The notes under the pieces were generated by a model. That model was not told the origin of the DNA. It searched no databases and worked only from the letters and a program-made list of their open reading frames with translations. Both the position numbers and the translations under genes were made by a program. From IMG/VR virus record IMGVR_UViG_3300033069_001798, positions 64,001-128,000 of that record: a DNA stretch of 64,000 nt. The stretch is one strand, 5' to 3'. This stretch comes from a virus. Its lineage: Duplodnaviria > Heunggongvirae > Uroviricota > Caudoviricetes. Shown piece by piece: positions 7,830 to 59,080 of this stretch (position 1 is its first letter; each line of letters starts with the position of its first letter).

Positions 7830-8333
7830 ATGAAGCTGCAACTAGGTGCCTTGAGACGTTTGATATCAGAAGTGCTTGAGGATGATCTTGACGAAGAAAT
7901 CAACGAATTGCGAGAAAATCCTGAGTACATGTCGTTGGAGGCTTTCATAGAGAGCAAGCTAGATGATGACAACTATGAATACAACTTCATCGATTTGCAT
8001 GCTCTAGGGCGCAACATGACGCAAGCAAAGTATGGTTCAAAGATGGAAGTCTCTGAAGCTGGTGCTAGCGATCTTGCGCACATCAAGAAAGAACTTGGCG
8101 ATCTTGGGTTCAAGTTTGTTGGCAGAAACGTGACAAAGAGCGTCAGAGGATTTAGAGCTGGAGCGCACGGCAGGAATCCGTTCGCAGGCTCGGGCGGCGG
8201 TGGAACCGGCATGGGATCTGCGTGGGGAAATCCAACTGGATTCTCTCATGGTGGTGGACCCGGTGCTGTCGGCGGTGGATACAACTGGAGCGCTGGTGAT
8301 TCCAAGAATCTGAAGATGGGCAGCAAGCGCTAA
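7830..8333 (+). CDS. putative virion (head-internal) protein with shared N-terminal MKxxxxxLRxLIxE motif and Gly-rich C-terminus
   Basis: MKLQLGALRRLISEVLE; GSGGGGTG/GGGPGAVGGG tail. Confidence 0.65.
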   Translation: MKLQLGALRRLISEVLEDDLDEEINELRENPEYMSLEAFIESKLDDDNYEYNFIDLHALGRNMTQAKYGSKMEVSEAGASDLAHIKKELGDLGFKFVGRNVTKSVRGFRAGAHGRNPFAGSGGGGTGMGSAWGNPTGFSHGGGPGAVGGGYNWSAGDSKNLKMGSKR

Positions 8334-11300
8334 TCCCAATTTTCTCATCTTGAACACCGCCGTCGACATTCCAAACTCGTTCCTCTCAACTTCAGCGCAG
8401 TACAACGTGAACGGTTGAAGCAGCTCTTTGCAACCCCACACGCTGATGCGATTTGGCTTGCCTGTCGGACCAGTTGCAAAGATCTGAACGTACTCTTTTC
8501 CGTTCTTTGTCTTGCGCTTCACACCAGTCACGGGCTTTGCACCCTTCTTGGGTGAAGTAGGAGTGACGACGAACCAGCAAACTTTTATCTCGCCGAGCTC
8601 AACATCTTCGACTGGAACTACTCCCTTCCCGTCTAGGGCATCGAGCAACCGAGGATCAATCATCGCTGTCACATCCAAAGTGCCGAACACTTCAACCATG
8701 TTCTGAGCCTTCTCGATAGAAGACCAATCAGGTTGCCCAGCGTACTTTCGAACAAGCTCAAAGAAGTTCTTCAAACCTTCAGTTGGATCGCTCTTGGGAT
8801 GTCGCTTTATCAGAGCATTATGATCTATCTCAGCTTCGAACGTTGAAACTTCACCTTTCCTCTTCTTCGTCACTGTCTCAACGTGAGATCCAACGATGAC
8901 ATCGTGCATGTGCTTGTAGCTGCTGAACAGCTTTCCTTCACCAACGATGTTCATTGAACCAAAAGCACCAATCTTGATGAGAGCTTCTAGAGCCCTCTTG
9001 TTGAACTTGCTGTGCCTCCAGTTGAATTCATCATCCCACAGCAGATCTTCAATTGCCTCGTAAGGTCTGTTTTCCATGATCTCTTCAACTGCTGAATCAC
9101 CAACACCCTTGCAGCTTGTCATCGATGGCATCAATTTCTTGCCGGGCAGCACAGTCCAACCAAGCGCAGCTTGGTTGATATCGATTGGGACGATCTGGTA
9201 GCCCAAAGCCTTCACTTCGCTGAAAGCTTTTGCTCGCTGCTCTGGGGTGTTTGACATGGACTCGAGATAAGCGCACAACCACTGCTCTTCGTAGTGCGTT
9301 AGCAACCAGGCACACCAGTACGAGTCGATTGCGTAAGCAACTGCATGGCTCTTGTTGAAACCGTAACCGCTCATGAAACAGATCGTTTCATACATCTTGC
9401 GAGCAGTTGCTTCCGGAACGCCGTTCTTCACAGCACCAGCAACGATGCTGTCTTCAAGTTCCTTCATCTTCTTCTTCGCAGCTTCACCGCCTGAGATGCT
9501 GCGCTTCATGATAGCACGTCGAACCTCGTCAGTTTCTGACAGCGGAAAGCCAGAGACTTTGTTGACAAGAGCCATGACGCCCTCTTGGAACACCAGCAAC
9601 CCACGTGTTTCTTTCAACGTAGAGTTGATGAGCGGGTGACCCCAGTCGTACGGTTCAACTTCATGCTTCAACCACAACTTGTCAACGTGAGCCGCTAGCG
9701 GACCCGGTCGATAAATGGACGTCAAAGCTGCGATATCGATGATGCTCTTTGGCCGAGCCTTCTTGAAAAGTTGCTGAGCGCCTTTTCCTGTACATTGAAA
9801 TACGCCAGCCCAACGCCCTTCGCAGTAAGTTTCGTATGCCTTCTGATCGTCAAGATCGATGACATCAGGTGACATGTTGTTTTCATACCAAGTCTTGATG
9901 TCATCGAACGTTGGTGCTGCATTTCCCTCTTTGATGAGGATCAGTTCGATCGTTCTTTCGATCAACCTCAACGTTTCAAGGCCAAGAATGTCGTACTTGA
10001 TGAAATTTCCGATCTTCTCAAGGTGTTTGAAGTTGACACCTTCTACCCAAGGACTCTGCGGTTCACCCTTGCTGGTGATCAGGGGCATCTTGTTTGGAAG
10101 ATCGTCAGCAATTAGAACACCACCTGCGTGACGTCCAAGAGAACGATTCTGCTTGAACAGAACGTTCATAGATTCGCCAACTTCAGGGTGCCGTGCAATG
10201 AAGTCTGAGAAAGCTTTGTCGTACTTCAAACCCTCATCGTACGTGAGCACGAATAGGTTCTTGTCATCACCTTCCTTCATCGTTGCGCGGCGAACAGAGT
10301 CTTCGACAGTTCTAGTCGCGGCGTTGACTTCATCGAAGGGAATGCCATAGAACTTGCTGACATCCTTCAAGAGACTCTTCACCTTGAAAGCATTGTAGTT
10401 CGAGATTGGAACGACGTTCTCGTAACCAAAGAAATTTCGCAGCTGATCAAGAACTTTATCGCGGTCAGAGACGTCGCTATCAATGTCTGGCGCACCTTGA
10501 CGATGCACGGAGAGGAATCGAGAGAAAGGTAGGTCCCACTTGATCGGATCTAGGTCGGTGATGTACAGCACGTACGCAACAAGAGATCCGGCGCCACTGC
10601 CTCGCCCAGGTCCTACCAAAACTACTTTCCGCGCCAGCTCGATGATCTTTTGGTACGAGATGAAGTAATCCGCATTCTTCATCTGCTTGATGACGCCGAG
10701 CTCTTCTTTCAAACGATCAAGATATTCATCCTTGCCATCGAGCCCACGCTTCACCATCCCATCCTTGCACAACTTCACGAGATGGTTGAATGACTTCTCA
10801 CCTGGTGGGATGAGGCGCTCAGTTGGAAACTTTTGCGATCGATCTGGTTTAACCTCACCAATGAGGTGATGCGCGATGTCATGGGTTCGCTCAATTGCAT
10901 CACAGATGATCTGATCATCGTAAAAAGACGTATCGACCTTCGACTTCAAGTACTCATCCCACATCTGAGGCGCGTTCTTTGGGTAAAGTTCGCACTTCAG
11001 CTCGTCTCGAGATTTTGGAAGTGAATTGGGATCGATCGTCTGGTAGTTCATCCAACCCAACTTCTTGTAGAGCTCACGCTCCTTCCAGACGTCTGGATTG
11101 TAGTAGTGTGCATCTCCAGTGACAACAAGTTGTTTTTGCAAACCATTTCTGGTTGCAAACTCAATGATTGCACGGTTGACAAGGTTCTGCGCCGGCAGAC
11201 GGTTGAACTGCAGCTCGAGGAAGTAATTTCCTTCACCAACCGCAGACACCATCATGTCGTACGTATTTCCGACAGCATCAACGCACTTATCAAGAAGAGC

Positions 11301-11510
11301 CTTGTCGTCAAGGAGCGACTGGTTGAGATTATCGAACGAAATTCCCTGAAGCACTTGGAATACGCTCCAAGAGGGAAACCCGCCGATGCAATTATGGACT
11401 AGCGAACCATCAGCAAAAAAACAATGTGTATCTTCAACTGTTATGTCATATACGTCAGGTGTTTCTTCGTCAATGGAAATGCTGTCAATTTCAACGAATT
11501 CAGTTGTCAT
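8331..11510 (-). CDS. dnaE: DNA polymerase III alpha, C-terminal fragment with split-intein C-part; ends at TTA 8331-8333
   Basis: MTTEFVEI...YDITVEDTHCFFADGSLVHN|CIGG (intein C plus Cys+1), GRGSGAGS, PDIDSD, GRHAGGV, KYDILGL, YGFNKSHA. The track extension past FKMRKLG is an antisense overlap with 7830..8333. Confidence 0.93.
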
Positions 11511-12459
11511 CTGCATAGCTGTCATTGATTGATTTGATGAATTCGTCAAGGTAACCTTCTTTTTTCAAGTCCGCTTCCCACAACACACAAACATTATAGC
11601 CAATTGATCTGGCATAAGCCAACTTTATCTCATCTTTTGACCATTTTTCACTTGCCTTAACTTGCCCGTACGGAAATTGAATTAGATCATCAGCGTTATA
11701 AACGCGTGGATCTGCGTGCCAGTACGTTCCATTTACTTCAATGATCAGATTGAATCTTGGTACAAAAACATCATATGCAAATTTGCCCAAAATTTTCTGT
11801 GTTTCACAATGAATATCTTTGTTTAGCAATTCAGATACAACTCGCAATTCGAGTTTCGAATTGCGAGCACGCATACTAACAAGCCCTTTAAGCCCTCTAT
11901 TTCTTGAGAGTTCACGAATTAGTTCTAGAACGTCATCAGCAGCAAGCTGTTGATAGTTCGAAAATGATCTTGAGAATGGAGACTTACTTTTTCGAAAGGC
12001 TGACGATTTAACATTTGCTTCGTCAAGAGAATATCCTTTATTGAGATAATATTCAGTATTATTTTTGGGCGTGTATGCATCCCATGCCTTTCTAATACGA
12101 TGAGTAGTCTTAGCACCTTTTGAAGATTGTTGTGAACAGATCTTTTTTATCTCTTCAAGAGAAGTTCCCTTAGGATATTTGAACTGCAACTTAACTTCTT
12201 GAGGCAATCTCAAGTAAAGTTTATTGTTATGAACTATGCCTAGTTTATGAAACAGATTTACAATTGATCGTTTTGAAAAACGAAAACGTGTAACAATATC
12301 ATTGTGATCTCTCACAATTAGATCATAAATCATAGACAAACTATAATGTAGGTCTGATGCCAGGCGCTTCAATTCAACCGTCGTCAGACCTACATGAGTT
12401 AGAGAGTCAAGAAATTCTTGACGAGCTAGTGCTTTCTTTTTAGAATCAAATTTTCTCAT
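11500..12459 (-). CDS. free-standing VSR/DUF559-like homing endonuclease between split-intein halves of dnaE
   Basis: FAYDVFV..LIIEVNGTYWHAD..DEIK..GYNVCVLWE; AT-rich. Confidence 0.88.
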   Translation of the reverse strand: MRKFDSKKKALARQEFLDSLTHVGLTTVELKRLASDLHYSLSMIYDLIVRDHNDIVTRFRFSKRSIVNLFHKLGIVHNNKLYLRLPQEVKLQFKYPKGTSLEEIKKICSQQSSKGAKTTHRIRKAWDAYTPKNNTEYYLNKGYSLDEANVKSSAFRKSKSPFSRSFSNYQQLAADDVLELIRELSRNRGLKGLVSMRARNSKLELRVVSELLNKDIHCETQKILGKFAYDVFVPRFNLIIEVNGTYWHADPRVYNADDLIQFPYGQVKASEKWSKDEIKLAYARSIGYNVCVLWEADLKKEGYLDEFIKSINDSYADDN

Positions 12460-12475
12460 AGTTGTCCACCAATAA

Positions 12476-13477
12476 CTATTGGTGGATTGACAGTATATGA
12501 TCTGTTTTCAGAAGTTCTTGTGCTTCTACCCAACCACGTTTAGTATAGACTTTGTGATCAGGCGTTACCCGCAATGTTGCACCATTTTTAAGCTTAATTC
12601 GAACAATTTTTGCTTGTTCTCTTGTTTTATCAGCCCAAGTAACTTTCTTAAAAACAAGTTGGTTTGTGTCATGATCATATGACAACACCGAAATTTCAGT
12701 GCCATTTTTTACATGTTCAACTAGATTAACAATCTTCATTGAACCACAATTGGTGATCACAATTGAATCTGGATGAATGCATGCAGAAGTGACAACGATG
12801 TTACGATCTTTTCCTGCTTCCTTCAGCATCTCCAAGTCGATGCGAGGGAATCTGTAAAAACCCTGCATGTACGCTTTCGAGCACGCAGAGAAAATGGACA
12901 GCAAGCCCTGCTGGTTCTTTGGCAGAACAACAAGGTGATGACGACGGTTGACGGGATTGAAGTGCTTCGTTGACTTTGACTCGTCTTCATTTTCAACTGT
13001 CAGAGCATTGGTCATCTCGATGTCTTCGGTTTCATCCGCTTCATCGACGACAGCAATGATCTTTGTCTGCAGCTTTTCCTGCTCCTTCAGGAGCTTCGCT
13101 GCTGCTTTCTTATCGACCAGGGCTTCTTCAGCACGAAGCTTGTCAACTTCCCACTGCTTCAAGCTTGGGTGAAAGTACATTTCACAACCCGGAATGTACT
13201 TGAAAGGAAGTTTTGGGTTTGCTTTATTCCAATCTTCAACTGCGAGTTGAGCATGAGCGTAACTGTTCATGTTACCGTGCTCAGTAATTGCGTGAGCATC
13301 AAGACCATTCTCACGACAAAAATCGAAATGTTCGTTCGGGTATCCGAGGCCGTCAAAGGGTGATTAAATCCCCTACGAAAACCCTGTGTGATTATGCAAA
13401 CCAACAAATCGCTTCGGAGTGCGCACAGAGTTTTCTAGGGATACCTCCTTTCTGTTGTTTGAATCGTTAATTTTCAT
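12476..13477 (-). CDS. dnaE: DNA polymerase III alpha, N-terminal (PHP) fragment plus split-intein N-part, interrupted by a 15-nt in-frame gap at 13361-13375
   Basis: ATG 13477 (or GTG 13426) gives RTPKRFVGLHNHTGFS-[TAG GGG ATT TAA TCA]-PFDGLGYP..AITEHGNMNS..PGCEMY..HLVVL..TSA|CIHPDS..TPDHKV (intein N). Confidence 0.88.
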
Positions 13478-14235
13478 TCCCATTCCTTAATCAATGACGC
13501 GTATTGTTGTCGAAGGCTATAATATTCCTTCGGACCAACAATTTGCAACCTCTCGTTTGGATACTCAATTGTAAATTCGTCGAGTTGACGTTTCGACCGA
13601 TCATCCATCCAGCCTTTGATTTCAATGAAACAACCATCAACATAGAAATCTGGCGTGTAAGAAATCCCACTTGCGAGCTCGAACGTTTTCGGTTCATATA
13701 GCCAAGATTTTCCCTGGTGGATAAGAATTCGTGCGTAATTTGCCTCCCATGAACTGCGATAAAATCCAGGAAGATCATCTCGCTTCCCGGCCTTTCCTCG
13801 TGATTTGAGACCACCTTTCATTTGTTTTCGAGCATTATCACTATGTTTTCGACGTTCTTCTCGCGAACGAATTCGTTTCTTATTGAACGTAATAGTTCTT
13901 TCACGACCCTCTTTCGTCTGTCTCCAGTTCGAAACACCAAACTTTTTAAGGTTCGTCTGACGAATTTTTTCTTTGACCTCATTACGAGACCACGGATTTT
14001 CTACTTTTCCTGAAAGTAGATTCTGTTTGGTTATTTCACCAATTTTCTTACGTCGTTCTTCATCCCATTCAAATGCGCCACCTTTTCTCATATTTTGCGT
14101 TCGAAGTTGATTACGACAGTTTTTTGAACATGTGCGGCACCAATTACCTTTTGATTTATCAATAAAAGGATTATGGCACCAGTCACAAACTTTTTCTCTT
14201 GATTTCATGGCTTCAACACCATGAATATACTTCAC
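13474..14235 (-). CDS. PD-(D/E)xK homing endonuclease with Zn-finger
   Basis: CDWC..CRTC, RSSWEANYAR, YTPDFYV..IEIKG. Confidence 0.8.
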   Translation of the reverse strand: MKYIHGVEAMKSREKVCDWCHNPFIDKSKGNWCRTCSKNCRNQLRTQNMRKGGAFEWDEERRKKIGEITKQNLLSGKVENPWSRNEVKEKIRQTNLKKFGVSNWRQTKEGRERTITFNKKRIRSREERRKHSDNARKQMKGGLKSRGKAGKRDDLPGFYRSSWEANYARILIHQGKSWLYEPKTFELASGISYTPDFYVDGCFIEIKGWMDDRSKRQLDEFTIEYPNERLQIVGPKEYYSLRQQYASLIKEWE

Positions 14236-14273
14236 TTTAATTTAGATGACCACCTAATAATCCATAGGAGCCA

Positions 14274-14324
14274 CTAAGAAAAGCACGTGTGATTATGAAG
14301 ACCAACAAATCGTTTCGGTGTCAT
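14274..14324 (-). pseudogene. duplicate 5' end of dnaE (MTPKRFVGLHNHTCFS-TAG)
   Basis: Near-identical to 13376-13423 (TPKRFVGLHNHTGFS). Has its own SD-like AAGGTAAG and lies upstream of the endonuclease. Confidence 0.85.
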
Positions 14325-14401
14325 GTAATTCGTCTTACCTTACATTGTAAGGCTCGTGACAGCGCAAGTTCACACTAAGTTTTCGTTAAATGTCGATAAA
14401 T

Positions 14402-15130
14402 TTACTGATTTACAGTATCATCATTAATTTTGGCACGACGTGTTATCCAACCCAATTTAGCAGCTTCTTTTGCCTCGATAGTTCCTTTCATATTTCTTCT
14501 TGCTATAGCCATTTCTGGTGGTATACTACGTCCTGTCTTTTTTCCAAGCTTCGCCTGGCGTAGCTTTTCACGATGATCATCAGTAAATTTACGACCTTTT
14601 TGTGAATCACTCATTTTTTGCTTAGTTTCATCACTTTTATGTTTACCAAAATTTGCATTATTAGCACCAGAGCTAGCTATTGACAATAGACGCTTTGTTT
14701 CTTCAGTGTGTTTACGACCCTTCATTGAAGGTTCACGCAATTTCATTCTATGACGTACTTGATCTGACACTCTACATCCACCACGACCACCACTAGTCAA
14801 GTTATAACCTACACGTGGATCACATAGATTCCACTCAGTTACTATTCTTTTTTCTTCAAGAAAAGCAGCGTCTTCACTATCACACCACGTCAATATTTCA
14901 AATTTGAACTGTTCAACGCCATGTTTTCGCATCGAACAATACAATCTTCTTAGATCACCACGTCGGGCATAAGATTTGTGCCCAAGCCAACGTCTAGTTG
15001 GCTGAACAGATTTCCCAACATATCGTTTGTTATTAACATTGTTAGTGATCACGTAAATTGCACATTCACGTTCTGAATGTAGTGTATCGTCTTCTGAAGA
15101 CCTTCCAGCAATTGCACACTCGGTTGCCAT
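14402..15130 (-). CDS. GIY-YIG homing endonuclease with NUMOD3-like repeats (start uncertain)
   Basis: AIYVITN..RYVGKS, GYNLTSGG, KHTEETK / KHKSDETK repeats. Confidence 0.88.
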   Translation of the reverse strand: MATECAIAGRSSEDDTLHSERECAIYVITNNVNNKRYVGKSVQPTRRWLGHKSYARRGDLRRLYCSMRKHGVEQFKFEILTWCDSEDAAFLEEKRIVTEWNLCDPRVGYNLTSGGRGGCRVSDQVRHRMKLREPSMKGRKHTEETKRLLSIASSGANNANFGKHKSDETKQKMSDSQKGRKFTDDHREKLRQAKLGKKTGRSIPPEMAIARRNMKGTIEAKEAAKLGWITRRAKINDDTVNQ

Positions 15131-23759: not shown

Positions 23760-24545
23760 TTATTCAAACATTTTTTCCAACGCTAGCGGCGTCAGCCAAT
23801 TCGGAACAATTGGTCTGTCATGCCAATGTTCTTCTTGACCCGCAATAGACGAGATGAATGATTCACGAACAAACTTGTAACGTCCACGGACATAACCTCC
23901 TTCTTCCCATTTCACGTAGAGGCCCTCCATCGTGTCGTTCTTGTCAAGTTTCGCTAGGATCTCTTCGTCTGTTTTTTCTGGGTACGCTGCCCTGGCAGAC
24001 TTCACGTAATTTTCATTACGTTGATCAGTCACGAAGTTTGATCTGATGATGAGAGACTGAAGCTCCTTCAACTTCGAGAACTTTCCACTCTTCAAGACCA
24101 ACACAGACTGCAAGTTCAGCGGTGCCAAAAGCTGCATTCTGGACGGCGTATCAAGGTAGAGATTTGTGTCTCGATCGTACACGTCAAACTCCATGAAATA
24201 GTGAGGCAATGCATCGTAAAACATGGTGTGACATGCATACATCCACTCACCGAACATAACGTAACGATCTTCGAGAATGCAGTACAGATCTTCTGTTTTT
24301 GAAGTTGCCCATTGCTTCAAAAGGTTGAATTGAATCTCACGAGGACCACCTCTAAGGTAATGCCCTCGTGATTGCAGCATCAAGCGTTGATCTTCAAAGC
24401 TGATACCAATTTGTGAACCATCAACTTTTTCTTCTACGACAAGATTCTTGCCAGCAAGATCTTCCCACGGAACAGCTTCAAGATCATCGTCTCCGTGTTG
24501 GAAACGACTTCCTCGAATGTGTCGGGTACGATCGTATTTTTTCAC
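23760..24545 (-). CDS. ATP-dependent RNA ligase
   Basis: Motif I EEKVDG, FGEW, FMEFDV, EGLYVK, RYKFV. Confidence 0.85.
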   Translation of the reverse strand: MKKYDRTRHIRGSRFQHGDDDLEAVPWEDLAGKNLVVEEKVDGSQIGISFEDQRLMLQSRGHYLRGGPREIQFNLLKQWATSKTEDLYCILEDRYVMFGEWMYACHTMFYDALPHYFMEFDVYDRDTNLYLDTPSRMQLLAPLNLQSVLVLKSGKFSKLKELQSLIIRSNFVTDQRNENYVKSARAAYPEKTDEEILAKLDKNDTMEGLYVKWEEGGYVRGRYKFVRESFISSIAGQEEHWHDRPIVPNWLTPLALEKMFE

Positions 24546-24546
24546 G

Positions 24547-24804
24547 TTACGCTCTCTTTCTTACCACTCTCTGCGCTGGAATTATGATGTCACAAACGTT
24601 GGATGAACTCTTAAGTTCATCCAAGATGGCATCATGGCAGCTTTCGTTAACTTGAACGTAGCACCGAGATGCCAGCTCTACAGAGTTAGTGTCCCTGTAG
24701 AGCTGATCTACAGCCTCAGCACCCAGTTCGTACAATCGATCAGCGACTTTTTGAAAGTCTTCCACCACAGCGAGGCCGAACATGATGTGCTTCACAGCAC
24801 TCAT
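24547..24804 (-). CDS. hypothetical protein
   Basis: 85-aa ORF in operon. Confidence 0.5.
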   Translation of the reverse strand: MSAVKHIMFGLAVVEDFQKVADRLYELGAEAVDQLYRDTNSVELASRCYVQVNESCHDAILDELKSSSNVCDIIIPAQRVVRKRA

Positions 24805-24840
24805 CGTTGCTGAACCCTTTTCGTGTCAGACAGCAACATG

Positions 24841-25821
24841 CTAAAAATCACCTTCTGCTACTTGAAAAACTGTCAGACCCAATTCACGCCATTTTCTACA
24901 AACCTGATTCCGATCGTCAAGAACGAACAGAACGTTGTACTTCCCACGAACATGAGCATCAAAGAGTTCTTCCTTGATGATGCTGTCCTTTCGCTGATCA
25001 ACTTTAGTCAGATCCAGTTCACCGCGCATGTGCAGCTCGTACGGGATTGCTCTGCCATCCGGCCCCCAGAGCTTCAGATCGATCTCACGGCAGTACTTCT
25101 CGATGAACCTCACAGTTTCTGGACGATACTTCACGTCGCGGCCGCTCATGAAGATGATCTTCACGCCTTGAGCATACATCGCCAGGACCGTTTTGATGAC
25201 AGGCCAGTTCGGCAAATCTTTTTCGTCGCAATCAGTCGCATCGTAAGGCGAACGATCGCCGATGAGAGCAAGCGTACCGTCCAAGTCAACCATGATAGCC
25301 GTTGGAAGATCTGGATTGATCGTCAGTGGATCGCCGCAGCCGATCGGCGGGTAATAAACTTCACGATCAGGCAGCTTTCGTCGACCTTCCAACCCGGCTC
25401 CACGTGCCATGTCACGGATGACCTTCTCACCCACGTGAGCAAAACCTGAGCGCTTCGCATCACGGGCAATTGCCTCTTCTACATCAACGTTGAAAGACTT
25501 CTCGATGACTTTCACGTTGCCGATCGATTCCACGAACGTGTGCAGCTTCTTCACAGTCTGCGGCACAAGGTGCGTGTCGTCCAAGATGACATCGTAACCG
25601 GACTTCAACGCAGCAGACAGCAGGTTGTTCTTCGCCTCACGAACAAACTCTTCACGAGTCTTGTCACCGGTGTGCGGGTTGTTTGCTGGTCCCACTGACA
25701 TAGACCTTAGATCATCTCTATTGATGCGAACCCAGCGTTTTGGCTCCTTTGCAACGAGGCTCGCTGCGAAAGTCGACTTTCCACACCCCGGCAACCCACG
25801 CAAGATGAAAACGGTTCTCAT
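24841..25821 (-). CDS. pseT: polynucleotide 5'-kinase / 3'-phosphatase (T4 PseT-like)
   Basis: GLPGCGKST P-loop, RINRDD, HAD motif VDLDGTLA, FVLDDR. Confidence 0.92.
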   Translation of the reverse strand: MRTVFILRGLPGCGKSTFAASLVAKEPKRWVRINRDDLRSMSVGPANNPHTGDKTREEFVREAKNNLLSAALKSGYDVILDDTHLVPQTVKKLHTFVESIGNVKVIEKSFNVDVEEAIARDAKRSGFAHVGEKVIRDMARGAGLEGRRKLPDREVYYPPIGCGDPLTINPDLPTAIMVDLDGTLALIGDRSPYDATDCDEKDLPNWPVIKTVLAMYAQGVKIIFMSGRDVKYRPETVRFIEKYCREIDLKLWGPDGRAIPYELHMRGELDLTKVDQRKDSIIKEELFDAHVRGKYNVLFVLDDRNQVCRKWRELGLTVFQVAEGDF

Positions 25822-25827
25822 TCTTTT

Positions 25828-25857
25828 ATCCTAACACTGTTAGTGCAATAAGTGCAC
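25828..25857 (-). promoter_or_regulatory. sigma70-like promoter, likely leaderless transcript
   Basis: GTGCAC-N18-TAGGAT, with the -10 box 6 nt before ATG 25821. Confidence 0.5.
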
Positions 25858-25875
25858 TGTCCCAAAATTAGCGAC

Positions 25876-25900
25876 GGCCCGGGTGTATCCTACCCGGGCC
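25876..25900 (-). terminator. GC-rich hairpin downstream of the Y-like RNAs
   Basis: GGCCCGGGT-N7-ACCCGGGCC perfect 9-bp inverted repeat. Confidence 0.55.
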
Positions 25901-25964
25901 ATCTAGAGTTAGTCAACTTATCGTGTTGACGTCGATTTTTTACAGAAAGGGATCACACGTTTAA

Positions 25965-26105
25965 GTTCACCAGTCAGTCCTTAGACGACCTCGCTCTGCC
26001 ATTAAGCTACCGCGCCTTATTTACTGCTTCAGCTGTTCCTGTTGGAACATGGAGGCGCGGGTGAGATTTGAACTCACACTAGTTCGCAATATTCAGCCGG
26101 TGAAC
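25965..26105 (-). ncRNA. Y-RNA (YrlA)-like circularly permuted tRNA mimic #2
   Basis: T-arm GTGAGTTCAAATCTCAC plus CCGCGCCTCCA (26050-26079) precedes GGCGCGG plus D-arm GCTTAATGGCAGAGC (25993-26016). The ends pair GTTCACCGG/CTGGTGAAC. No anticodon arm. Confidence 0.75.
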
Positions 26106-26159
26106 GATTGATTGATCCTTGCATCCTTTATCGACTAAGTGAACCTGTTGCGATAGCTT

Positions 26160-26345
26160 CAGGTTGAGTTGAGATCACCAGTGCGTCTGCCAGTTCCGCC
26201 ACCCCTCCTCATTGATTCGTTCCAAGCATAACTTGAGGTGAATCACTCCTTGACTGTGAGTCAGTGGAGGGGGTAGGATTTGAACCTACAATTTTGCTAG
26301 CTCTCTCTGTTAGCGTAAGGCTGATTTTCAGCTTGCGCAAACCTG
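26160..26345 (-). ncRNA. Y-RNA (YrlA)-like circularly permuted tRNA mimic #1
   Basis: T-arm GTAGGTTCAAATCCTAC plus CCCCTCCA (26265-26290) precedes GGAGGGG plus D-arm GCGGAACTGGCAGACGC (26181-26208). The ends pair CAGGTT/AACCTG. Confidence 0.75.
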
Positions 26346-26352
26346 TTACGGA

Positions 26353-27084
26353 TAAACCGAACAGGTAATCGAAAACGCGGGCTCCAACCTGGACTGGTGG
26401 TGCCTCACGAGCGTTGCATTCCTCACGAGCGAACTTCACTGCACGTTGCAGCTTCTCGACTCGAGCCAGAAGCTCAGCAACTCGCTGAGCCGGAAGAGCT
26501 CCAGAGAACTTCACAGTCTTCCAGAAACCCACGACCTGATCCTCGTAGCCCTCCTTGACTTGGGCTGCGTGCTTGTCAGTCGCCGGAGCAAGGACAAGCG
26601 GGACAAAGACCTTCTTCGTACGAGTCGTCTCGGACGGCTTCGTAGCGTAGCAGTTCACGTTCGGATCCAGAGTCCATTCCTCCGAAGAATCAAGGACGGG
26701 AAGCTTGCTGACGAACGTGTGCAGATCAACCAGCTTCTTCTCGAGGAAGAGAAGGTACGTAACCGGCACGTTCTTCGCAAGAACCACATCACCGACCGTA
26801 AGATCAGTGCGAGCCTCGCAGTTCGCGAAATCCTTCGTCGCAGTGACGTCAAAGAGATCCGTCAAGGTCGACGAGAGCTCCTTGAGGAAATCCGTAGCAT
26901 TCAGCTGAACACGGGACGACTCAGACGGAAGAGCCTCACCAAGCTCGTCCTTCGGACGGTACGTCCGCGAAATTCCCTGCAGGAGGGGAGCCTTCTGCAT
27001 CTTCTGGTAGATCTCAGTGATCGCAGCATGCGCCTTGTTCTTCACCGACTTTTCAACTGCAATGACTTGATTGAGCTTTCCCAT
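26353..27084 (-). CDS. coiled-coil RNA-repair-associated protein (Rot/DUF7873-like); ends at TTA 26353-26355
   Basis: MGKLNQVIAVEK...VPVTYLLFLEKKL...KFSGALP...VFDYLFG. Readthrough of TTA would run through the adjacent RNA. Family recognised from memory. Confidence 0.7.
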
Positions 27085-27151
27085 TTTCTTTCTCCGTCTC
27101 CGTTAGATGTGCTTACTTTACCTTCTGTGCGCCCCATGTTCAAACTAATTT

Positions 27152-28105
27152 TCAGCCATGAATTGCAAGGTAACGCTCAGTGAAATCCACGAGCCATGCA
27201 TTGATCTTCTCCCGATCTGGCTCTTTGCGCACTGTAGAAGTCTTGTACAGCTCTTCACAATCGCTCTCAAGCCTCTCAGCTTCCTCGATGAGGCTATCGT
27301 AGGGACGATGACCGTTACGAATCTCCAGAAGTTCCTCTCTATCGAATCGACGCTTCACGTTAACCTTGCCAGTCTCAAGGATCTCCTTGCACATGCGCAT
27401 CAACCTCATGAGATGCGCGCCATGTTTACTATCATATCCAATCTTTGCTTCGAGCTCTGCTCGAGCAGGATTGCGAGACTTCTTCCAGTGAACGTACTGG
27501 TCATAGTGCGTCTTTGCTGCGGCGTACTGCTTTTCCCTTGTGAACAGAGTCAGGACGCTCTTCGGCACGTCGAGAGCAATACCGCTCTCGATCGCAGAAT
27601 CGTAAGCGCCGAGCTCACTCTTCGAAACACGAGACACGTCGGACAGCCCAAAATCGGATCGTGCTGGGGCGCTCGCGGGAGGGTTCAGCAACCATGCACG
27701 GTGATTCTTGATGCGATGAAGCTGAGAATGAGCGTAGCCCGAGAAAGTGTGCTTCGCCTTCCTGGATATGAAATTGTCTTTGAACTCACGGAGCTCTTCA
27801 CCCCAAGAATTGATGTCGAGGACGTCGCTGTCATCAACGAACAGGATCTCTATGATGTTTGGGTTGCAGTCAGCAGCGAGCCGCACGAACTTATCAAGTG
27901 CAAAGGTCACAGAGTCAACACCACCTGTTTTTGATGCCATCATCTCAGCCTGTTCAAAGTTGTTCAAAAATCCAAAATACCGCTCTTTTGTAGGTACACA
28001 AACAGCCTTGTAATCGATATCTGAACCTGCAATGTTGAGTCCATATGCATATGAACCATGAATTACACGAATGATTGTTCGTGTATCGATATCAAATGTT
28101 GACAT
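27152..28105 (-). CDS. Pol-beta-superfamily nucleotidyltransferase (RlaP-like)
   Basis: HGSYAYGLNIAGSDIDY, NPNIIEILF, GYDSKHGAHLMRL. Confidence 0.85.
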   Translation of the reverse strand: MSTFDIDTRTIIRVIHGSYAYGLNIAGSDIDYKAVCVPTKERYFGFLNNFEQAEMMASKTGGVDSVTFALDKFVRLAADCNPNIIEILFVDDSDVLDINSWGEELREFKDNFISRKAKHTFSGYAHSQLHRIKNHRAWLLNPPASAPARSDFGLSDVSRVSKSELGAYDSAIESGIALDVPKSVLTLFTREKQYAAAKTHYDQYVHWKKSRNPARAELEAKIGYDSKHGAHLMRLMRMCKEILETGKVNVKRRFDREELLEIRNGHRPYDSLIEEAERLESDCEELYKTSTVRKEPDREKINAWLVDFTERYLAIHG

Positions 28106-28982: not shown

Positions 28983-29414
28983 TTACTCGATCTTTATGCT
29001 GAGTGCTTCTTCAGGTGGTGGTTGTTTACTCTTCAATCCTATCGTAAGGATGCCATCAGCTAGCTTCGCAAACGTTGGATTGGACTCGTACGTATCCTGA
29101 ATGCGCCAGCTCCACGAGACAGTCTTCGCACCGCCGGGCATCTTACGTTCAGCCTTGACAACAAGAGTCTTGTCTTGCAGCGTTATCGATACGTCTTCTT
29201 TCTTGTATCCCGGTAGTTCAACGTGAAGAGCAGAACCTTCTTCAGTCTTCTCATGCCAAAACGTTGGTTCTGGTAGATTGTTCATGATCTTCTTCGTCCA
29301 GATAGAAGATTCTGACTTAAATGGATCAATTGAAAGCATGTCATCAAAGATTGCGTTAAAGTCACCGAACTTGTAGGTTGGATTTCTCATCGTATCATAG
29401 TAACGAGTTAGCAT
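28983..29414 (-). CDS. small heat-shock protein (Hsp20/alpha-crystallin); start revised to ATG 29414
   Basis: LHVELPGYKKEDVSITLQDKTLVVKAER...AKLADGILTI. The upstream part of the track ORF contains three TTA codons. Confidence 0.88.
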   Translation of the reverse strand: MLTRYYDTMRNPTYKFGDFNAIFDDMLSIDPFKSESSIWTKKIMNNLPEPTFWHEKTEEGSALHVELPGYKKEDVSITLQDKTLVVKAERKMPGGAKTVSWSWRIQDTYESNPTFAKLADGILTIGLKSKQPPPEEALSIKIE

Positions 29415-29489: not shown

Positions 29490-29582
29490 TAAGTACCCTG
29501 ATTCGATCCTTTTTCGGTTGACTTCACCTTTTTTCATGTACGCTTCGTGCATCTCATCAAGCGTTACACCTGATGCAATCAA
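29490..29582 (-). pseudogene. orphaned duplicate C-terminus of the NTP pyrophosphatase domain; ends at TTA 29490-29492
   Basis: IASGVTLDEMHEAYMKKGEVNRKRIESGY aligns with ILSGITSKDLYKAYMKKGTINFARILSNY of 29579..30754. Confidence 0.8.
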
Positions 29583-30754
29583 TAATTGCTCAATATTCTA
29601 GCAAAATTGATTGTTCCTTTTTTCATATATGCTTTGTACAAATCTTTGCTAGTAATACCACTCAAGATAAACAATTCCATCAGATAATGCAACGTATCTG
29701 ACAACTCTTCCAAAAAGGCCTCTTTATCAAAATCTTGCACATCAGATATTCTGTGTGATTTTGAATTACGAAGCAAATGCACAGATTCAAACAATTCATG
29801 CATGCATTCATGTGCAACTTCTTTAAGAAGTTTCTGACCAGGTTTTGAAGAAACATCAACTGGAAATTCTGGGAAATTTCTTTCCTGACGCAGGAGTTTC
29901 ATGAACTTCATTTGTTCAACGAACATGTGTTCAAGTCGATCATCAGTCGATTTAGATGTTGACAACAAAAATACACACTTATCATGCTTAATCAAAGTTA
30001 TGTCTGATTTCAATTCTGGCAATGTATCTTCTGTTATGATTTGATAAGTCAATTGCTTGTCTTTACAGAAATCTTCTGCTGCAACAGCTTTTGCAAGAAC
30101 TTTTGGATCATTTTTACACGCATAAGAACTTTTAACTTCAAACAACGTTCTCCATTTTTCAACGTAAAAATCTGGGATATATGTGTGACCACGACCGTCA
30201 AACTCATATTGAATAGTAGGTACTTTTTTCAAATCTGTCTGCAAATTGACTTGTTTTGTTTCGAGCCACTTAAGAAAGTGATATTCATACGAACTTCTAA
30301 AGAAGTTACCTTTGTACCATCCTTTAATTGTATTCCAAGAATACAAATTCTCTGGTTGCTCTAGCAACTTAGCCGTAGCTCTTTCGCTCATAGCTTTACG
30401 ATGTACAGCGTTAATCGTTGGTTTACGACCATGAACTGCTGTAAATTGCGTTGAACACTTTCGATTGCAAAATCTTGGCAAAGGAGATCTTTTACGCTTT
30501 GTAACGTTAGCATTGCAGTATTCGCATGTAAATGTGTAATACTGCAATTTTTCGAGTTCATGAACTCTTTCTACGCCATGTTGGTGAATTTTGAATTCAC
30601 GTGAAGCAGTTTTAATTCGACCATGTGCATATGACCAAATTTGACTACATGAAGTATCGCAAAAATTTGGTTGTTTTCCACTACGGTTAGACTTTTCACA
30701 CTTTTTACCGCATTGCTTGCAATTAAATTGATATGTTCGTAGTATACGCGCCAT
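29579..30754 (-). CDS. TnsA-N-like endonuclease fused to MazG-like (all-alpha) dNTP pyrophosphatase
   Basis: Zn-finger repeats, FRSSYE..YIPDFYV..FEVKS, then HELFE...EELSDTLHY. Confidence 0.75.
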   Translation of the reverse strand: MARILRTYQFNCKQCGKKCEKSNRSGKQPNFCDTSCSQIWSYAHGRIKTASREFKIHQHGVERVHELEKLQYYTFTCEYCNANVTKRKRSPLPRFCNRKCSTQFTAVHGRKPTINAVHRKAMSERATAKLLEQPENLYSWNTIKGWYKGNFFRSSYEYHFLKWLETKQVNLQTDLKKVPTIQYEFDGRGHTYIPDFYVEKWRTLFEVKSSYACKNDPKVLAKAVAAEDFCKDKQLTYQIITEDTLPELKSDITLIKHDKCVFLLSTSKSTDDRLEHMFVEQMKFMKLLRQERNFPEFPVDVSSKPGQKLLKEVAHECMHELFESVHLLRNSKSHRISDVQDFDKEAFLEELSDTLHYLMELFILSGITSKDLYKAYMKKGTINFARILSNY

Positions 30755-30860: not shown

Positions 30861-31109
30861 TAAGTCACCGATAACTACTCTGCTCTTATTTCTCTCAGAC
30901 TTAAGCTGTTCAACCTTTGCAAGTGCATCATCATGAGATGCCTTCACTCGTTCAACGTAACCCTTCGTCAAGACGAGCTCTTCGCCAAACGTTTCAACTT
31001 CAACCATTCGAAGAAGATCAACGATGTCAACGCCCATCAAGATTCCCTCTTGAAGAATTTGTGCAATGCGTGCGATAACTGAATCTGATAGCTTGTATGT
31101 TTTATCCAT
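30861..31109 (-). CDS. hypothetical protein; ends at TTA 30861-30863
   Basis: YKLSDSVIARIAQILQEGILMGVDIVDLLR. Confidence 0.6.
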
Positions 31110-32991: not shown

Positions 32992-33333
32992 TAAGTGATT
33001 TACCTTAGAGTTTTTGTGTGCAGCAACCCATGCAGTCTGAACTGCATCATTGATCTTTGATGCTACTTGTTCAGATGCTGAGGCCGCTGTTGTCTTAAGA
33101 GATTCGTACATCTGATCATCAAATTCTCTCGAGGATTCATCGTACTTCTCTGGGTTCGCAAGAACAAGGTTGCTTAGAAGCGCTGATTCGAACGCTGTCT
33201 TCAAATCAGAGACCGCTTTGACAATGTTCTTCTTCTCCATCGGATCTTTTGCAGGTTGGCTGCTCTTGAAGACAGCAGGTGAAACTGCAACTTCTCTGAT
33301 GATCTTTCGCAGATCACTTAGCTTTATCTTCAT
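32992..33333 (-). CDS. putative virion protein with shared N-terminal motif (hidden in the track's RNR ORF); ends at TTA
   Basis: ATG 33333 gives MKIKLSDLRKIIREVA, preceded by in-frame TTA 33346 and GAGG SD. Confidence 0.75.
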
Positions 33334-33345
33334 GACGTTAACCTC

Positions 33346-33729
33346 TAAAAGACCAAAATTTTCAGACGCATTCTTCATGTGTTGAGCAATGACCTTCAAA
33401 AGATCTTCTTTGAGGTCTTCACCGAAGCTGTTGTATTCATCGCTACCAATATCTTGCGCAGACATGTTAGCATCTGGTGGCGAAGCTCTTTCAACGATCT
33501 CGGCCAAAGACTCCATGAACTCATTGATGACTGGTTCAAGCGCCTGAGCAAACAGTTCCCTGTGTGACTCTTCAAAGTTCCACGGTTGCATGCCGTATTC
33601 CTTATCATCATACTCGCCAGTGGCATCATATGGTCCAAAGGCTTCCTTCAAAGTTCCCTTGCGCTTCACGTTCAGAACTTCTTCGTTAACAAGCTGCCTC
33701 AGCATCTGCGGTGTGATCTTGATTTTCAC
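33346..33729 (-). CDS. putative virion protein with shared N-terminal motif (hidden in the track's RNR ORF); ends at TTA
   Basis: GTG 33729 gives MKIKITPQMLRQLVNEEVL, with ATACTTA at 33754-33760. Confidence 0.75.
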
Positions 33730-33759: not shown

Positions 33760-36366
33760 TAAGGAACACTTGCTACTTCCACAGTTCATGCACGTCTGGC
33801 AACCTTCCATGTACGCTAGCTGATCAGAACCGCAACTTGAGCACTGCTTTTCTTGAGTTGCTTTCGTTCCATCGACGATGTAACCCTTGCTCAAGACCCT
33901 AGCAATGACAGTTGAAAATGACATCATGTCGCTGTGCTTGTCTTTGCGAAGCTGCTCTACGATGTACTGAAGCGGGATGCCATGCCTCAACGTTAGAGAC
34001 AACGTTCTGGTGAACGAACCGTAAGTTGGGTTGTCAAACAAGTTAACAACGTCTTTGAACGTCACAAAATCATCATCTCCTACAGGAATCTTCAGGTTGT
34101 ACGTTGCAACACCGTCTTTCTTGCCATTCTTGATCAAGATTCCCTTCTTAACCTTCTTTGGCACTTCAACGTGTTCTGACAGACCAGCAAAGACTTCGTA
34201 TGGAACACCGTTCAGCAATCCGACGAAGACAAGATACTGTTCACCTTTGATGTTGACTCGATGGATATCACACTCTAGCTCCTTTGGACGCTTTGGTGCA
34301 TGAACTTCGACGACCTTTTCTGGTTGAGTCGGCTCTCTCCTCGTGAGCTCTTCTTCAATCAATTTTTTGTACAAATCAGCTGATGGAATGCTACCAGCGT
34401 TCTTAGTTACAATGTCAAGAAGGGCTTTCAAGCCATCGGTCGACGCTCCTTGAATACTTGGCTTTTTCTCTTCTGTCGATAGAACGCCTGCTCTGCAACC
34501 ATCACGATACACTGTGATTCCCTTGCACCCAGATTCCCAACCTCGCATGTAGATGTTTTTAACTGTCTCAACTGACGTATCTGATGGCAAGTTGACAGTG
34601 CTGGAAATTGCATGGCAGATCCATCTTTGGGCTGCGGCTTGAAGGTCAACACGAGCATGCCAATCGATCTCAGAGCTAGAAGAACCCTTGTAAGGCGATT
34701 CATCAATATCAGCCTCTGTCTTTCCAGTCACATCCATCCACATCTTCAATCCATGATGGTAGACAGTATACTCTTGCCAACGATCTCCAAGATCATCAAC
34801 AAAGTTGGCAGTGGTCGTGACGTCGTTCGAATTGATCTTCTTCTTGCGCTTGTAGCTAACTGCAAAAACAGGTTCGCAACCAGACGTTGTTTGAGTCAGG
34901 ATTGAAACTGATCCAGCGGGCGCAGTTGTTGTCAAGGCAATGTTACGACGACCGTGAACCTTGTATGCAGCCTTGAGCTCATCATCATGTGCCAAGATCT
35001 TTTCAATGAACGGATGACCAGCTTCAACGTTGTGAGAAAACGCAGGAAATGCTCCACGTTCTGCCGCCATGTCAACTGACGAACGGTACGCAGAAAGAGC
35101 CAACATTCTATACAGATCTTCCGTAAAATCGATAGATTCCCTTGATCCGTACTTCAACCCAACGTACGCAATGGCATCACCAAGACCAGTGATTCCCAAA
35201 CCAGTGCGACGGCCCGAGGCACCTTTTTCCCTGATCTTCAACCAAAGATCTAGCTCGTTCTTCTTTACGTCGTCTGGTTCTGGATCTGAGTTGATCTTGT
35301 CGATGATCCTATCGACGGCTTCGAGCTCAAGATCAACCAAGTCGTCCATCAAGCGTTGAGCAACGTACGCAGCTCTCTTGAACTCTTTGATGTTGAAATT
35401 TGCTCTGTCAGTGAAAGGATTCTCTACGAACTTTGAAACGTTGAGAAGCAGCAATCTGCACGAATCGTAAGCGCAAAGAGCGATCTCAGAGCAGGGATTC
35501 GTAGAGATAGACTTGAAGCCGGGATATGCATCTGCTGGACCATTATTAACAACGTTGTCCCAAAATAGCAAGCCGGGTTCAGCTGACGCATGAGCAGCCT
35601 CAATGATCTCACTCCACAGTTCACCAGCGTCGACATCTTCTTTGATCGTATGCTGTGCATTTGCTTCAACTGGGAACCTTAGCTGGAACTTCTCGCCAGC
35701 CTTCACTGCTCGCATGAACTCATCAGTCAACCTGATCGAGATGTTTGCGCCTGTAACTTTTTCAACGTTCTTCTTGATGTTGATGAACGTGCGAATCTCT
35801 GGGTGATGAACAGAGATTGTCATCATCAAAGCACCACGGCGACCGCCTTGCGCAACTTCCCTGCAAGTGTTGCTGAAGCGCTCCATGAAAACACCGATGC
35901 CATCGGTCGTACGAGCAGCGTTAGTTGTGACCAATCCCTTTGGTCTGATTGACGAGATGTCGAATCCAACACCGCCGCGGCGCTTCATGATCTGAGCTTG
36001 CTCTTGGTCGGTCTTCATGATTCCGCCGTAAGAATCGTACGGCGATTCAATGACAAAGCAATTTGACAGAGACTGGATCTGCTTCGTGTTTCCAATCGCA
36101 GACATCGGCGATCCTTGAGGCACGATCTTCCAAGAGCTGAAATACTCCATGATCTCTTCGAACGAAATAGAGTTTTTGTAGTTCAACTCTATCCTAGCGA
36201 ACTCCTTCGCCAAGCGACGATGCATGGCTTCTGGTGTGCTCTCTAGAACTTGATCATTTGAATCACGCAACGCATATTTGGACACAAAAACATCAGCAGC
36301 TAGAGTGTCACCAGAAAAATAGTCAACCGATGCATCACGAGCTTCTTGGTACGTAAATGTCTTCAT
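33760..36366 (-). CDS. nrdJ: class II (B12-dependent) ribonucleotide reductase; ends at TTA 33760-33762
   Basis: SNCFV, RRGGVG, GGRRGA, TNPCSE, APAGS, terminal CSSC...CMNCGSSKCS zinc ribbon; no ATP cone. Confidence 0.88.
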
Positions 36367-40565: not shown

Positions 40566-40859
40566 TAACGTACCAGTTGAACCAAACCCACCGGCTCCAC
40601 GAGCGGTTTCTGGCAGCTCACGAGAGTGCGAGAATGACGCTCGAATAATCGGCGTAATTACAAGCTGGGCTATCCTATCTCCTTTGTTGACAGTAAATGT
40701 CGATGACCCTACGTTGTGCAATATGACTTTCACAACGCCTCTGTAATCACAGTTATGAATCAGAACATCATTACAGAAAAAATTATGATTGTTTTCAACG
40801 GTCAAATCATAACAACGATCAGTAGAACGCTCAATATTAACAATTTTTGCTAGTTTCAT
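40566..40859 (-). CDS. dut: dUTPase C-terminal fragment with split-intein C-part; ends at TTA 40566-40568
   Basis: [20 protein letters not shown]|[26 protein letters not shown]. Confidence 0.9.
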
Positions 40860-41772
40860 TTGCCTCCGTCATAAATTTACAAATGACATCTTTTGCTTCG
40901 TTTACGCTATGACACAGTGAAAAACACATGTTTTGTTTCTCTGACCAAATTTTAGCTGCTTGAGTTTTTTCATCAAGTTCAATCTGTGATGAAACATAAC
41001 CCTTCAATTCAAGCAGCAAATTTTTACCACGCCAAGATATCAAAAAATCAGGAATGTATCTTCTATTACCATTAAATTGATAATCAATCGTAATTCGATG
41101 TGCTTTTGTCCACGTAACATTCAATGATTCCAAGAATTCCATCAAAGAAAGTTCCCATGATGAATCATAATGTTCTCTTTTAGAATCTTTCGTTTCGAAC
41201 CAACCTTTGATATATCGATATGAACTGCCACATCTGCCATCATGGTAAGCTTCACAAACTGATGAACTTATTTTTTCCTTCCATTCTTTTATTCGTTCTT
41301 CTGACCAATTAATTCTATTATGAACAAAGACACCGGGATTATCCTCATGAAATTTCTTCATGAAAACACTTTTTCCTTTAAGATAATCATGTGTATCTTT
41401 TGTTCTGCCTGTCAAATGTTCTGAATTCTTTTTTCCAATCAAAGACAGTCTTTCATCCGAATCTTTTGTCAGACCATCATTCCAAGTTCTATGCCCATGG
41501 GCGTATGTACTTTTAATGATATCAGATTGTTTTTTACGAAATTCATCTGTACGATGCGTGCGTTGTCGAGACGCACGCATCTTTTGCTTGTATGATTCAT
41601 CTTGCCAAACAAGCTTATGTTGCTTAGAAATGGCTTCAATTGCCAACGCAGATTTCACTTCTGCGTTGGCAAATTGTTTACGATAAGCTTCAACTGACAA
41701 TTTGTGCTTACAACGTAGATGTTCAACGATAGAATAGGGTTTTTCAACGTTGCATATCAAACATTTGACCAT
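40837..41772 (-). CDS. free-standing TnsA-N-like endonuclease between dUTPase intein halves
   Basis: [29 protein letters not shown]. Confidence 0.82.
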
Positions 41773-43522: not shown

Positions 43523-44404
43523 TAATGTCTCCATCAGCTCGTTGAATGCATCGTCAAGCGTTTGCTTCTTCTTTGGTGCATCATCATCATCGTCAGACGA
43601 TGCTGCCTTTTTCTTGTTCTGCTTCTTTGGTTCTTCTGCCGGCGCAGAAGCAGGTTGTGCCTTCGCCGCAGTTGCAACTTCATTTACAAGTGCATCGAGC
43701 GCATCATTAGCAGGAGCACCCTTCTCGGTGCCGTCTTCTGACGCAGCGACGTCGCTGTTCAACCAATCGTTCAAGACCTTCTCGATCTCTTCCTTCGATT
43801 TCTGACGATACATGTCATCTAGGTTTGGCGTTGACGCCAGCAACTTCTCGATCTGTGCAGGATCTTCCATCAACTTCGACGGCCTGCGAGCAGCATCAAC
43901 GGTCGTATCTGGGTACTGCTTTCCGGGCGTCTGAGTGATAGTCACCTTCAGGTCAAAACCAACGAGGGGATCAAGAAAATCTCCCACCTCTTCGTCAGAG
44001 AAAAATCCAAGCAAGCGATTGTAGATTCCCTTGCCAATGCTCCAAACCTGGACGCCTTTGTCTTCCTGACCCCTGACAACGACAGCAACGTACGCTCTCA
44101 TCTTCGGATGAAGCTGCTTTGCCATCGCACGATCTTCTGGTTTCCCAGAAGAATACAGCTTCCTGATGAGGTCATCGATCGGATCCGGCTTACCGAACTG
44201 CTTCGGCGAAAGGATTCCTTGTGCATTTCCGATGTAGTAGAACCACCTCTCGAGGAAAGGTAGGTCATCTGTCGAGTTCTTCCAAGGAACTGCACGAATT
44301 TTATACTCGCCCGGCGTTGGCTTCCAAAGTTGAACAGAAGACGTCTTCTTCTGCCCGTTAAGTTCTGCCATGCGCTTACGAATTGCTTCTAGATTTATCG
44401 CCAT
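43523..44404 (-). CDS. T4 gp32-like single-stranded DNA-binding protein; ends at TTA 43523-43525
   Basis: LWKP..GEYKIR..P, CP replaced by DPIDD, GFDLKV, acidic tail LDDAFNELM. Confidence 0.8.
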
Positions 44405-44517
44405 GTTTATTTCCTCATTCCTTACGAGCAATTGTGTACTGCTCAAACCGCAGAATGCGATTAATGTTACAGTACACTCCCATGCTGGGGAAGTTCAAAA
44501 TCCTCAGATCACTTCAG

Positions 44518-58238: not shown

Positions 58239-58353
58239 TTAGACCTCAACCTACAAGTAGGTTTCTTATTTCGTTATCAGTCATGTTCTTTACCAGTTGT
58301 TTCGGAAGTGATTTGCGACGCGAAGTTTCAAAAGTGATAAAAGTAGCATAAAA

Positions 58354-59067
58354 TAACAACGGGAACGGAATGTTAAATTGCTTCTCGAACTCTTGAGCAG
58401 TCATGTGTTTCACGCTAAGTTTGTTCATGACAGATTCAACCGTTGCACCTGGGTGCTTCAGCTCATCCTGAAACTTCTTTGACGCTAGCAACGCGTTGGC
58501 CACGGTTTGGACTTGCTCATTAGTACCGCGAAGTTTGACGTTGACAGCTTTACCCACCAACCACGCTCCAACCGTAGCAAAGAAGATCTTACCGAGCAAA
58601 TTTGTCTTCAATTCGTTGATAACTTTTGACTCAGACATCTTCTCTTTTCCTTTAACGTTCTTCTCTATGTATGCAGCTGCTCGATTAAGGATACCAACAT
58701 CTCTGCTGTTACCGTCTGATACAAACAGTTCTTGCGCTTCATCAAGAGTGCAGCATCTCACTTCTTCCATCTCATAATCATGAGCACCGACCGGACCGGT
58801 TCTGACCATCATGAAGTAGTGCGTGATGCTGTACGACCCAACACCAGTTCCAAGCGAACCGTTCGGAAGCATCTTGGCTGGAACGCCTGCCTCTTCTTGA
58901 ACTTCGCGGAGCGCAGTTTCTTCTAGACCTTCGCCAGCATCAACTCTTCCTTTTGGAAAAGTCCACGGACCGTAATTGTTAGACGGCTTGCAAACGTACA
59001 CTCGATACGGTTCTTCAAGCGAATCTAGAACAACACCGCCTGCAGACGTCCACTTCTCGTTCGGCAT
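58354..59067 (-). CDS. NUDIX hydrolase fused to a small phage-conserved domain; ends at TTA 58354-58356
   Basis: Nudix box GRVDAGEGLEETALREVQEEAG; C-domain ends EFEKQFNIPFPL. Confidence 0.8.
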
Positions 59068-59080
59068 GATGTAAGTATCA

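Follow-up and report, generated by a model that had tools for sequence, protein, structure and literature searches.

UUA as a probable fourth termination codon in a clade of T4-like phages

In a clade of T4-like phages, UUA almost certainly serves as a fourth stop codon instead of coding for leucine, to judge by where TTA falls within and at the ends of genes; all other codons look standard. The pattern is real and natural, and it is good evidence for an undescribed genetic code in a phage and probably in its host.

Sequences and records

The DNA studied (the window) was the stretch of 64,000 nt at positions 64,001-128,000 of the IMG/VR record IMGVR_UViG_3300033069_001798 (Caudoviricetes); coordinates given below are those of the window unless another record is named. 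The window is part of a 140-kb virus record (G000) that is 42% complete and contains T4-like tail tube and sheath genes; the genome's GC content is 47%. Together with 62 kb from a second record (G001), the phage DNA covered came to ~200 kb, roughly 60% of the genome. An independent Logan assembly, L252 (SRR32380203), was 100% identical to the window across 7955 bp, which excludes an assembly error at the locus. An artefact or a planted change was ruled out, the pattern being found again in independent records (L001/L008 and L252), and so was confusion of strands (TTA is the reverse complement of TAA), since TTA lies on the coding strand.

TTA in gene interiors and at gene ends

TTA is absent from gene interiors. 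In codons aligned to those of the sister phage G005, TTA was counted 3 times among 18,024 in G000 vs 60 times in the same columns of G005 (Fisher 7e-15), and all three G000 triplets were off-frame or upstream of a start, which leaves no real case. The relative G466 had no real interior TTA in 10,546 aligned codons, and the sister phage had 33. None of ~450 changes of leucine codons between strains was to TTA (73 were TTG>CTG and 27 CTA>CTG; events are shared and not independent). Interior TTG and TCA occurred at 22.8 and 19.8 per 1000 codons and thus keep their standard meaning.

At gene ends the picture is reversed. Under table 11, TTA was enriched 21-fold in the last five codons, and every other codon at most 2.6-fold. 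With TTA taken as a stop, 59 of the 200 genes in G000 end in it (about 30%), as do 28 of the 71 genes in the further 62 kb of G001, the probable major capsid gene among them. Where homologs were available, 14 of 15 TTA-ended genes finished within 3 residues of the homolog ends (13 of 19 for genes ending in TGA). Coding density went from 0.843 to 0.826 with TTA as a stop and collapsed when CTA, ATA, GTA, TCA or TTG was treated in the same way. The next standard stop lies 0-446 codons past a terminal TTA, similar to the distance past TGA, so that there are no back-up stops. TGA is the commonest stop. Stop-to-sense recoding is absent: frames are long and intact under table 11, and all three standard stops are used as stops. 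TTA ends were present in every 20-kb bin and in replication genes, the mini-gene region and structural genes alike. By this distribution UUA behaves as a constitutive stop.

It is hardly credible that TTA is still leucine, as a rare, slow codon of the kind seen under bldA control in Streptomyces, strongly avoided and tolerated only near gene ends. Such a reading would fit the 17 of 46 terminal TTAs that have a standard stop within 3 codons, and ATGA overlaps can generate a TTA before TGA; however, read-through would append up to 446 residues and would fuse ribonucleotide reductase with two other genes, TTA stands exactly at the homolog end and not ahead of it, it exchanges with TGA or TAA in the same column, and the supposed extension differs in length between strains. 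The avoided-leucine reading is already contradicted by these observations.

TTA-ended genes in the window

All genes named in this section are on the minus strand. The gene for ribonucleotide reductase alpha (33760-36366) has TTA where its homologs end; under table 11 it runs on through the two genes that follow, giving a fused product of 1126 aa. Genes of 127 aa (33346-33729), 113 aa (32992-33333) and 82 aa (30861-31109) also end in TTA. The DUF7873 gene (26353-27084) matches 242 of 244 positions of the Pfam model up to its TTA, and all four homologs end exactly there. Homologs also end exactly at the terminal TTA of the C-terminal part of dUTPase (40566-40859; 3 of 3) and of a NUDIX-like gene (58354-59118; 41 of 45). 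TTA further terminates the single-strand DNA-binding protein gene (43523-44446), a DNA polymerase III alpha-type gene (8331-11549), in which the next standard stop is 98 codons on, and a 1545-aa gene (53601-58238) that, from its size and position, probably encodes the tape measure protein.

Several other features of these regions were recorded. The dUTPase gene (40566-41772) is split by a 311-aa Cys-rich insert together with an intein C-terminal remnant; in the near-identical record L001, dUTPase is without the 311-aa insert. An extra DUF7487 gene of 334 aa stands between the NUDIX-like and the 1545-aa genes in L008 (14423-15427) and L255 (6725-7729), and the window retains only its 3' end (58246-58353). 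Convergent genes often share one terminal TTA/TAA triplet, as in the 21 kb region of the window, at genome positions 139872-139874 and at L269:1516-1528; another such region extends over 62879-64000 of the window and beyond (genome 126879-128642 on the plus strand and 129084-129905 on the minus strand).

Relatives and the extent of the clade

The same TTA pattern was found in G466 (70 kb, 40% GC, 57% median protein identity), L045, L009/G002, G468 and G469. Comparison of this phage with G466 gave 42 co-terminal orthologs, of which 11 have TTA in both phages and 14 have it in one and another stop in the other; across orthologs TTA swaps with TGA, TAA and TAG. Stops are also exchanged between strains, at 29579 in L263 (see below) and at a sheath gene in L254.

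A tree was built from four genes (2454 columns, 20 phages; G468 and G469 were outside it). G000, G466, L045 and L009 formed one group with a bootstrap of 99, and these four phages span a GC content of 40-52%. G005 was the sister of the clade and has TTA inside conserved genes, that is, as leucine. A two-gene tree had suggested L043/G005 as a clade member; the assignment was dropped, as on four genes it is a sister with the standard code. L341 and L343/G470 were ruled out as TTA-stop phages, having matched the tube-end pattern by chance with TTA as leucine. Most of the other 80 tail-tube relatives read TTA as leucine.

The two gene ends at 29490-29581

According to the original prediction, two paralogous gene ends, one intact and one a displaced duplicate, align without gaps and finish at the same Tyr, one with TGA and the other with TTA, so that TTA would take the stop position with no outside database needed. 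The intact gene does end in TGA, at 29581-29579 on the minus strand after Tyr391 of a 391-aa product, and the tail does end in TTA, at 29492-29490 after its final Tyr. The tail consists of the last 29 codons (29493-29579, minus strand) of a dUTPase_2/MazG-like nucleotide pyrophosphohydrolase gene and begins on the A of the TGA. The gapless alignment and the common Tyr were confirmed, the two 30-codon ends sharing 45 of 90 bases and 15 of 29 residues. The proposed check against homologs was run: 25 of 27 stop at the equivalent Tyr (GY or NY), and in none does the protein continue with Leu.

The intact gene (29579-30754, minus strand) is a fusion with a GC content of 35% against 47% for the genome, and its 35 Leu codons include no TTA. 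A Cys-rich N-terminus is followed by a predicted TnsA-like/phrog_15427 endonuclease (approximately aa 13-250; PF08722, E 6e-10; phrog_15427, E 1e-12) and by a replacement pyrophosphohydrolase (aa 269-391; PF08761 above cut-off; phrog_12184, E 9e-15). The Glu/Asp columns of the conserved acidic metal-binding residues are invariant in the homolog alignment, and by these sequence features the C-terminal domain is a putative dUTPase_2/MazG-like nucleotide pyrophosphohydrolase. The fusion gene is missing from the TTA-code relative G466 and from L249-L251, all of which have a stand-alone pyrophosphohydrolase of 121-130 aa immediately ahead of Hsp20. In the window the Hsp20 gene (28983-29414, minus strand; 143 aa) is 75 nt from the tail; the distance in G466 is 71 nt. 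Over the shared C-terminal stretch the tail has 44% GC and the fused copy 28%, and the tail is identical to stand-alone homologs at 18-21 of 29 residues, above the 15 of 29 to the fused copy. From its GC content, its likeness to stand-alone proteins and its position beside Hsp20, the tail is the native 3' end. The description of the ends as paralogs born of duplication has accordingly to be replaced by that of a native remnant next to an invading copy.

An endonuclease with its own copy of the enzyme thus appears to have taken over the locus, and it may do so by homing. The endonuclease gene and its pyrophosphatase copy would have replaced the native 5' part, and the native 3' end, TTA stop included, would have stayed in front of Hsp20. 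Traits of a homing element are present: the gene is optional among relatives, is of foreign composition and has a native remnant at its site. T4-like phages carry free-standing homing endonuclease genes (seg/mob) that spread by intronless homing. The locus resembles these in having an AT-rich, optional endonuclease gene at a conserved gene that it partly replaces; it differs in that the predicted nuclease is joined to an entire copy of the target enzyme, with the native 3' end still in place. Elsewhere in strain L263 (1340-2215), endonuclease VII and RlaP genes are absent and a NUMOD3/TnsA-like endonuclease is in their place.

The claim that no outside database is needed was overstated. The overlapping TTG start is absent in strain L263, and the tail is therefore probably untranslated; TAA or TGA becomes TTA by one substitution, and the pair alone is thus weak evidence that could reflect decay. 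Of the intergenic triplets on the minus strand, 1.7% are TTA, so a chance TTA at that exact position is unlikely, but for one site not negligible. That the tail lost its TAA or TGA after translation had ceased, which would make the control a coincidence, was nevertheless rated very improbable. A single substitution would be enough, the tail is without a conserved start, and G466 terminates the native gene with TAA; yet all 7 other strain contigs retain the TTA (8 of 8 sequences with the window), and in them the tail varies by six distinct synonymous changes and one Glu-to-Asp change. Variation that is almost only synonymous indicates that the tail derives from recently functional alleles. Moreover, in strain L263 (SRR26992859; ~90% identity over the stretch) TTA is the final triplet of the intact gene itself, in place of the window's TGA at 29579-29581. 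This swap is the best single piece of evidence, and with the synonymous pattern of the tail it removes the doubt about decay. An uninterrupted native allele of the same species ending in Tyr-TTA was looked for and none was found. That TTA stands at the stop position is supported by the homolog ends together with the much stronger independent evidence from the whole genome and from strains.

NCBI table 23 gives the correct translation of the locus. Table 11 joins the tail and Hsp20 into a false protein of 199-202 aa, and such a protein is already on record (P0030).

Termination machinery and host

A release factor or tRNA was searched for in the ~200 kb of G000 and G001 and in 5 other records, and none was found; tRNA-Leu(UAA) and suppressor tRNAs were equally lacking from the ~60% of the phage genome that was covered, and 37 related records of up to 278 kb yielded no release factor. 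A release-factor-like gene was present on 12 viral contigs, of which the 6 with genes read use TTA as leucine and none belongs to the TTA-stop clade. Large phages (L380-L384, up to 402 kb) were seen to carry a standard RF2 gene, tRNA arrays and TAA/TGA stops.

The lack of a phage release factor or tRNA in these searches, with TTA ends in early and late genes alike, favours host machinery, and on balance the code seems to belong to the host bacterium. Ribosomes of such a host would lack a tRNA for the efficient reading of UUA, and termination there would fall to a release factor of the RF2 type whose second-position pocket is widened to accept U. An ancestor of the phage would have moved onto this host and then purged TTA from its genes, and phage stops would now drift freely among TGA, TAA and TTA. 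In organelles, UUA termination has been linked to changes in RF2 (Ser204) or mtRF1a, and in labyrinthulean mitochondria and peDinoflagellate plastids a change of RF2 Ser204 to Ala, Gly or Cys has been proposed (PMC12574857). Ala or Gly at this 'invariant' position was found to be common in Myxococcota, Thermoleophilia, Acidimicrobiia, Planctomycetota and Thermomicrobiales, and the same allele is widespread in Actinomycetota and Chloroflexota that keep TTA as leucine. Five Ala/Gly204 bacteria clearly read TTA as leucine (L101, L108, L163, L166 and L176; most others are too GC-rich to tell). As several such bacteria keep TTA inside genes, the Ser204 change is insufficient to make UUA a stop. In one myxobacterial group (G209, G263, G296) there is also an Asn after the SPF motif.

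No host with TTA as a stop was found in searches that were each limited to a single gene or to a sampled set of genomes. A search for S9 genes ending in TTA in 301 Myxococcota genomes gave chance matches only. A scan of JGI metagenomes for bacterial L36 genes ending in TTA gave none, the matches being plastid-type contigs, standard-code bacteria and indel errors; the scan was able to pick up plastid-type contigs bearing the UUA-stop pattern already known. Five plastid-type contigs (L367, L371, L372, L375 and L376) have TTA-ended r-protein genes, which fits the published peDinoflagellate code and may add lineages. The r-protein loci of 28 genomes with RF2 Ala/Gly204 had no terminal TTA, and a deformylase search gave no host signal. 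The phage encodes a major vault protein (G000 12034-14697; L303) whose identity to myxobacterial vault proteins reaches 51%, which may hint at a myxobacterial host. Most of 35 vault-bearing Myxococcota keep tRNA-Leu(UAA); the six in which it was not detected had no terminal TTA in the sampled DNA.

An unlikely alternative, ranked after host machinery, is that the host has the standard code and is switched to the new one by the phage, which brings a UUA-reading release factor (or a modifier) and removes the host tRNA-Leu(UAA); UUA-containing host proteins would then also be cut off. The failure to find a TTA-stop host, the standard code of the closest syntenic relative, the presence of other translation genes in the phage (IF-1, deformylase) and the approximately 40% of the genome unseen all speak for it, and some recoded phages bring their own release factors (10.1101/2021.08.26.457843). 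It has to be set against the finding of no release factor in ~200 kb of phage, the 70 kb of G466 and 37 relatives, and of no clade-specific candidate among the genes missing from G005. TTA ends also occur in all gene classes, so that a phage switch would need to act from the start of infection.

More doubtful still is a hybrid, in which the host has a permissive RF2 (Ala/Gly204) and keeps a tRNA-Leu(UAA) that either the phage or a host defence destroys on infection; UUA would be a stop only in infected cells. The permissive-looking allele occurs widely among Myxococcota, Actinomycetota, Planctomycetota and Chloroflexota with TTA as leucine, and the phage has RNA-repair genes and a PhoH-like protein with a PIN-nuclease-like N-terminus, but these RNA genes are also found in standard-code relatives, reading of UUA by a bacterial RF2-Ala204 is an assumption, and immediate-early genes ending in TTA would be read through before the tRNA was lost. 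The RNA-repair cluster in the window (23760-28105) comprises an RNA ligase, a Pnk/HAD phosphatase, an RlaP nucleotidyltransferase and a metallophosphoesterase, a composition that suggests counter-defence against tRNA-cutting host systems.

Discussion

Codes in which UUA is a stop have been described in organelles: NCBI table 23 (Thraustochytrium/labyrinthulean mitochondria), UUA and UUG in mitochondria of Marsupiomonadales and Pseudoscourfieldia, and UUA and UCA in peDinoflagellate plastids, the last called in 2025 the first sense-to-stop change outside mitochondria (PMC12574857). In its sequence-level features the phage code would work like table 23. As in the organelles, UUA is absent from interiors and is found at homolog-defined ends beside the standard stops; unlike them, the genome is that of a giant phage of the T4-like kind, whose translation takes place in a bacterial cell, and only UUA is changed, TTG and TCA being common sense codons.

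Recoding of stop codons in phages is known with TAG as Gln (code 15) and TGA as Trp (code 4) (Borges et al., 10.1101/2021.08.26.457843; PMC13037316). In those phages the recoded codon is biased to late genes, and a survey from 2026, which covered 10,754 jumbo phages, tested for recoding of TAG, TAA and TGA only. The clade described here shares with them a code that departs from that of close relatives, but it is not a member of this stop-to-sense class (codes 15, 4 and 25): the change is from sense to stop, the opposite direction, no suppressor tRNA was found (~60% of the genome), TTA has no bias to late or lysis genes, and the change is invisible to coding-density screens (0.843 to 0.826).

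In Streptomyces, under the control of bldA, TTA is likewise the special, depleted codon. There it still encodes Leu and occurs rarely, within regulatory genes, whereas in the phage it is missing from gene interiors and stands at the ends.

No report of UUA as a stop in a phage or bacterium was found in the literature searched, most subscription journals being outside its coverage. Very probably, either an unrecognised free-living bacterial lineage has reassigned UUA to stop and the phage follows, or the phage itself switches UUA in a standard-code cell; in either case this would be a sense-to-stop change outside organelles for which no published report was found. The finding exposes a blind spot, in that coding-density screens miss UUA as a stop, and standard gene callers already deposit fused, over-long proteins of these phages in databases. 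The proposed role of RF2 Ser204 becomes testable in bacteria, and a natural UUA-reading release factor would be a tool for the genetic isolation of engineered cells. For the phages themselves, a UUA-stop clade would be a sign of either a hitherto unrecognised genetic code in bacteria or a novel viral means of rewriting host translation.
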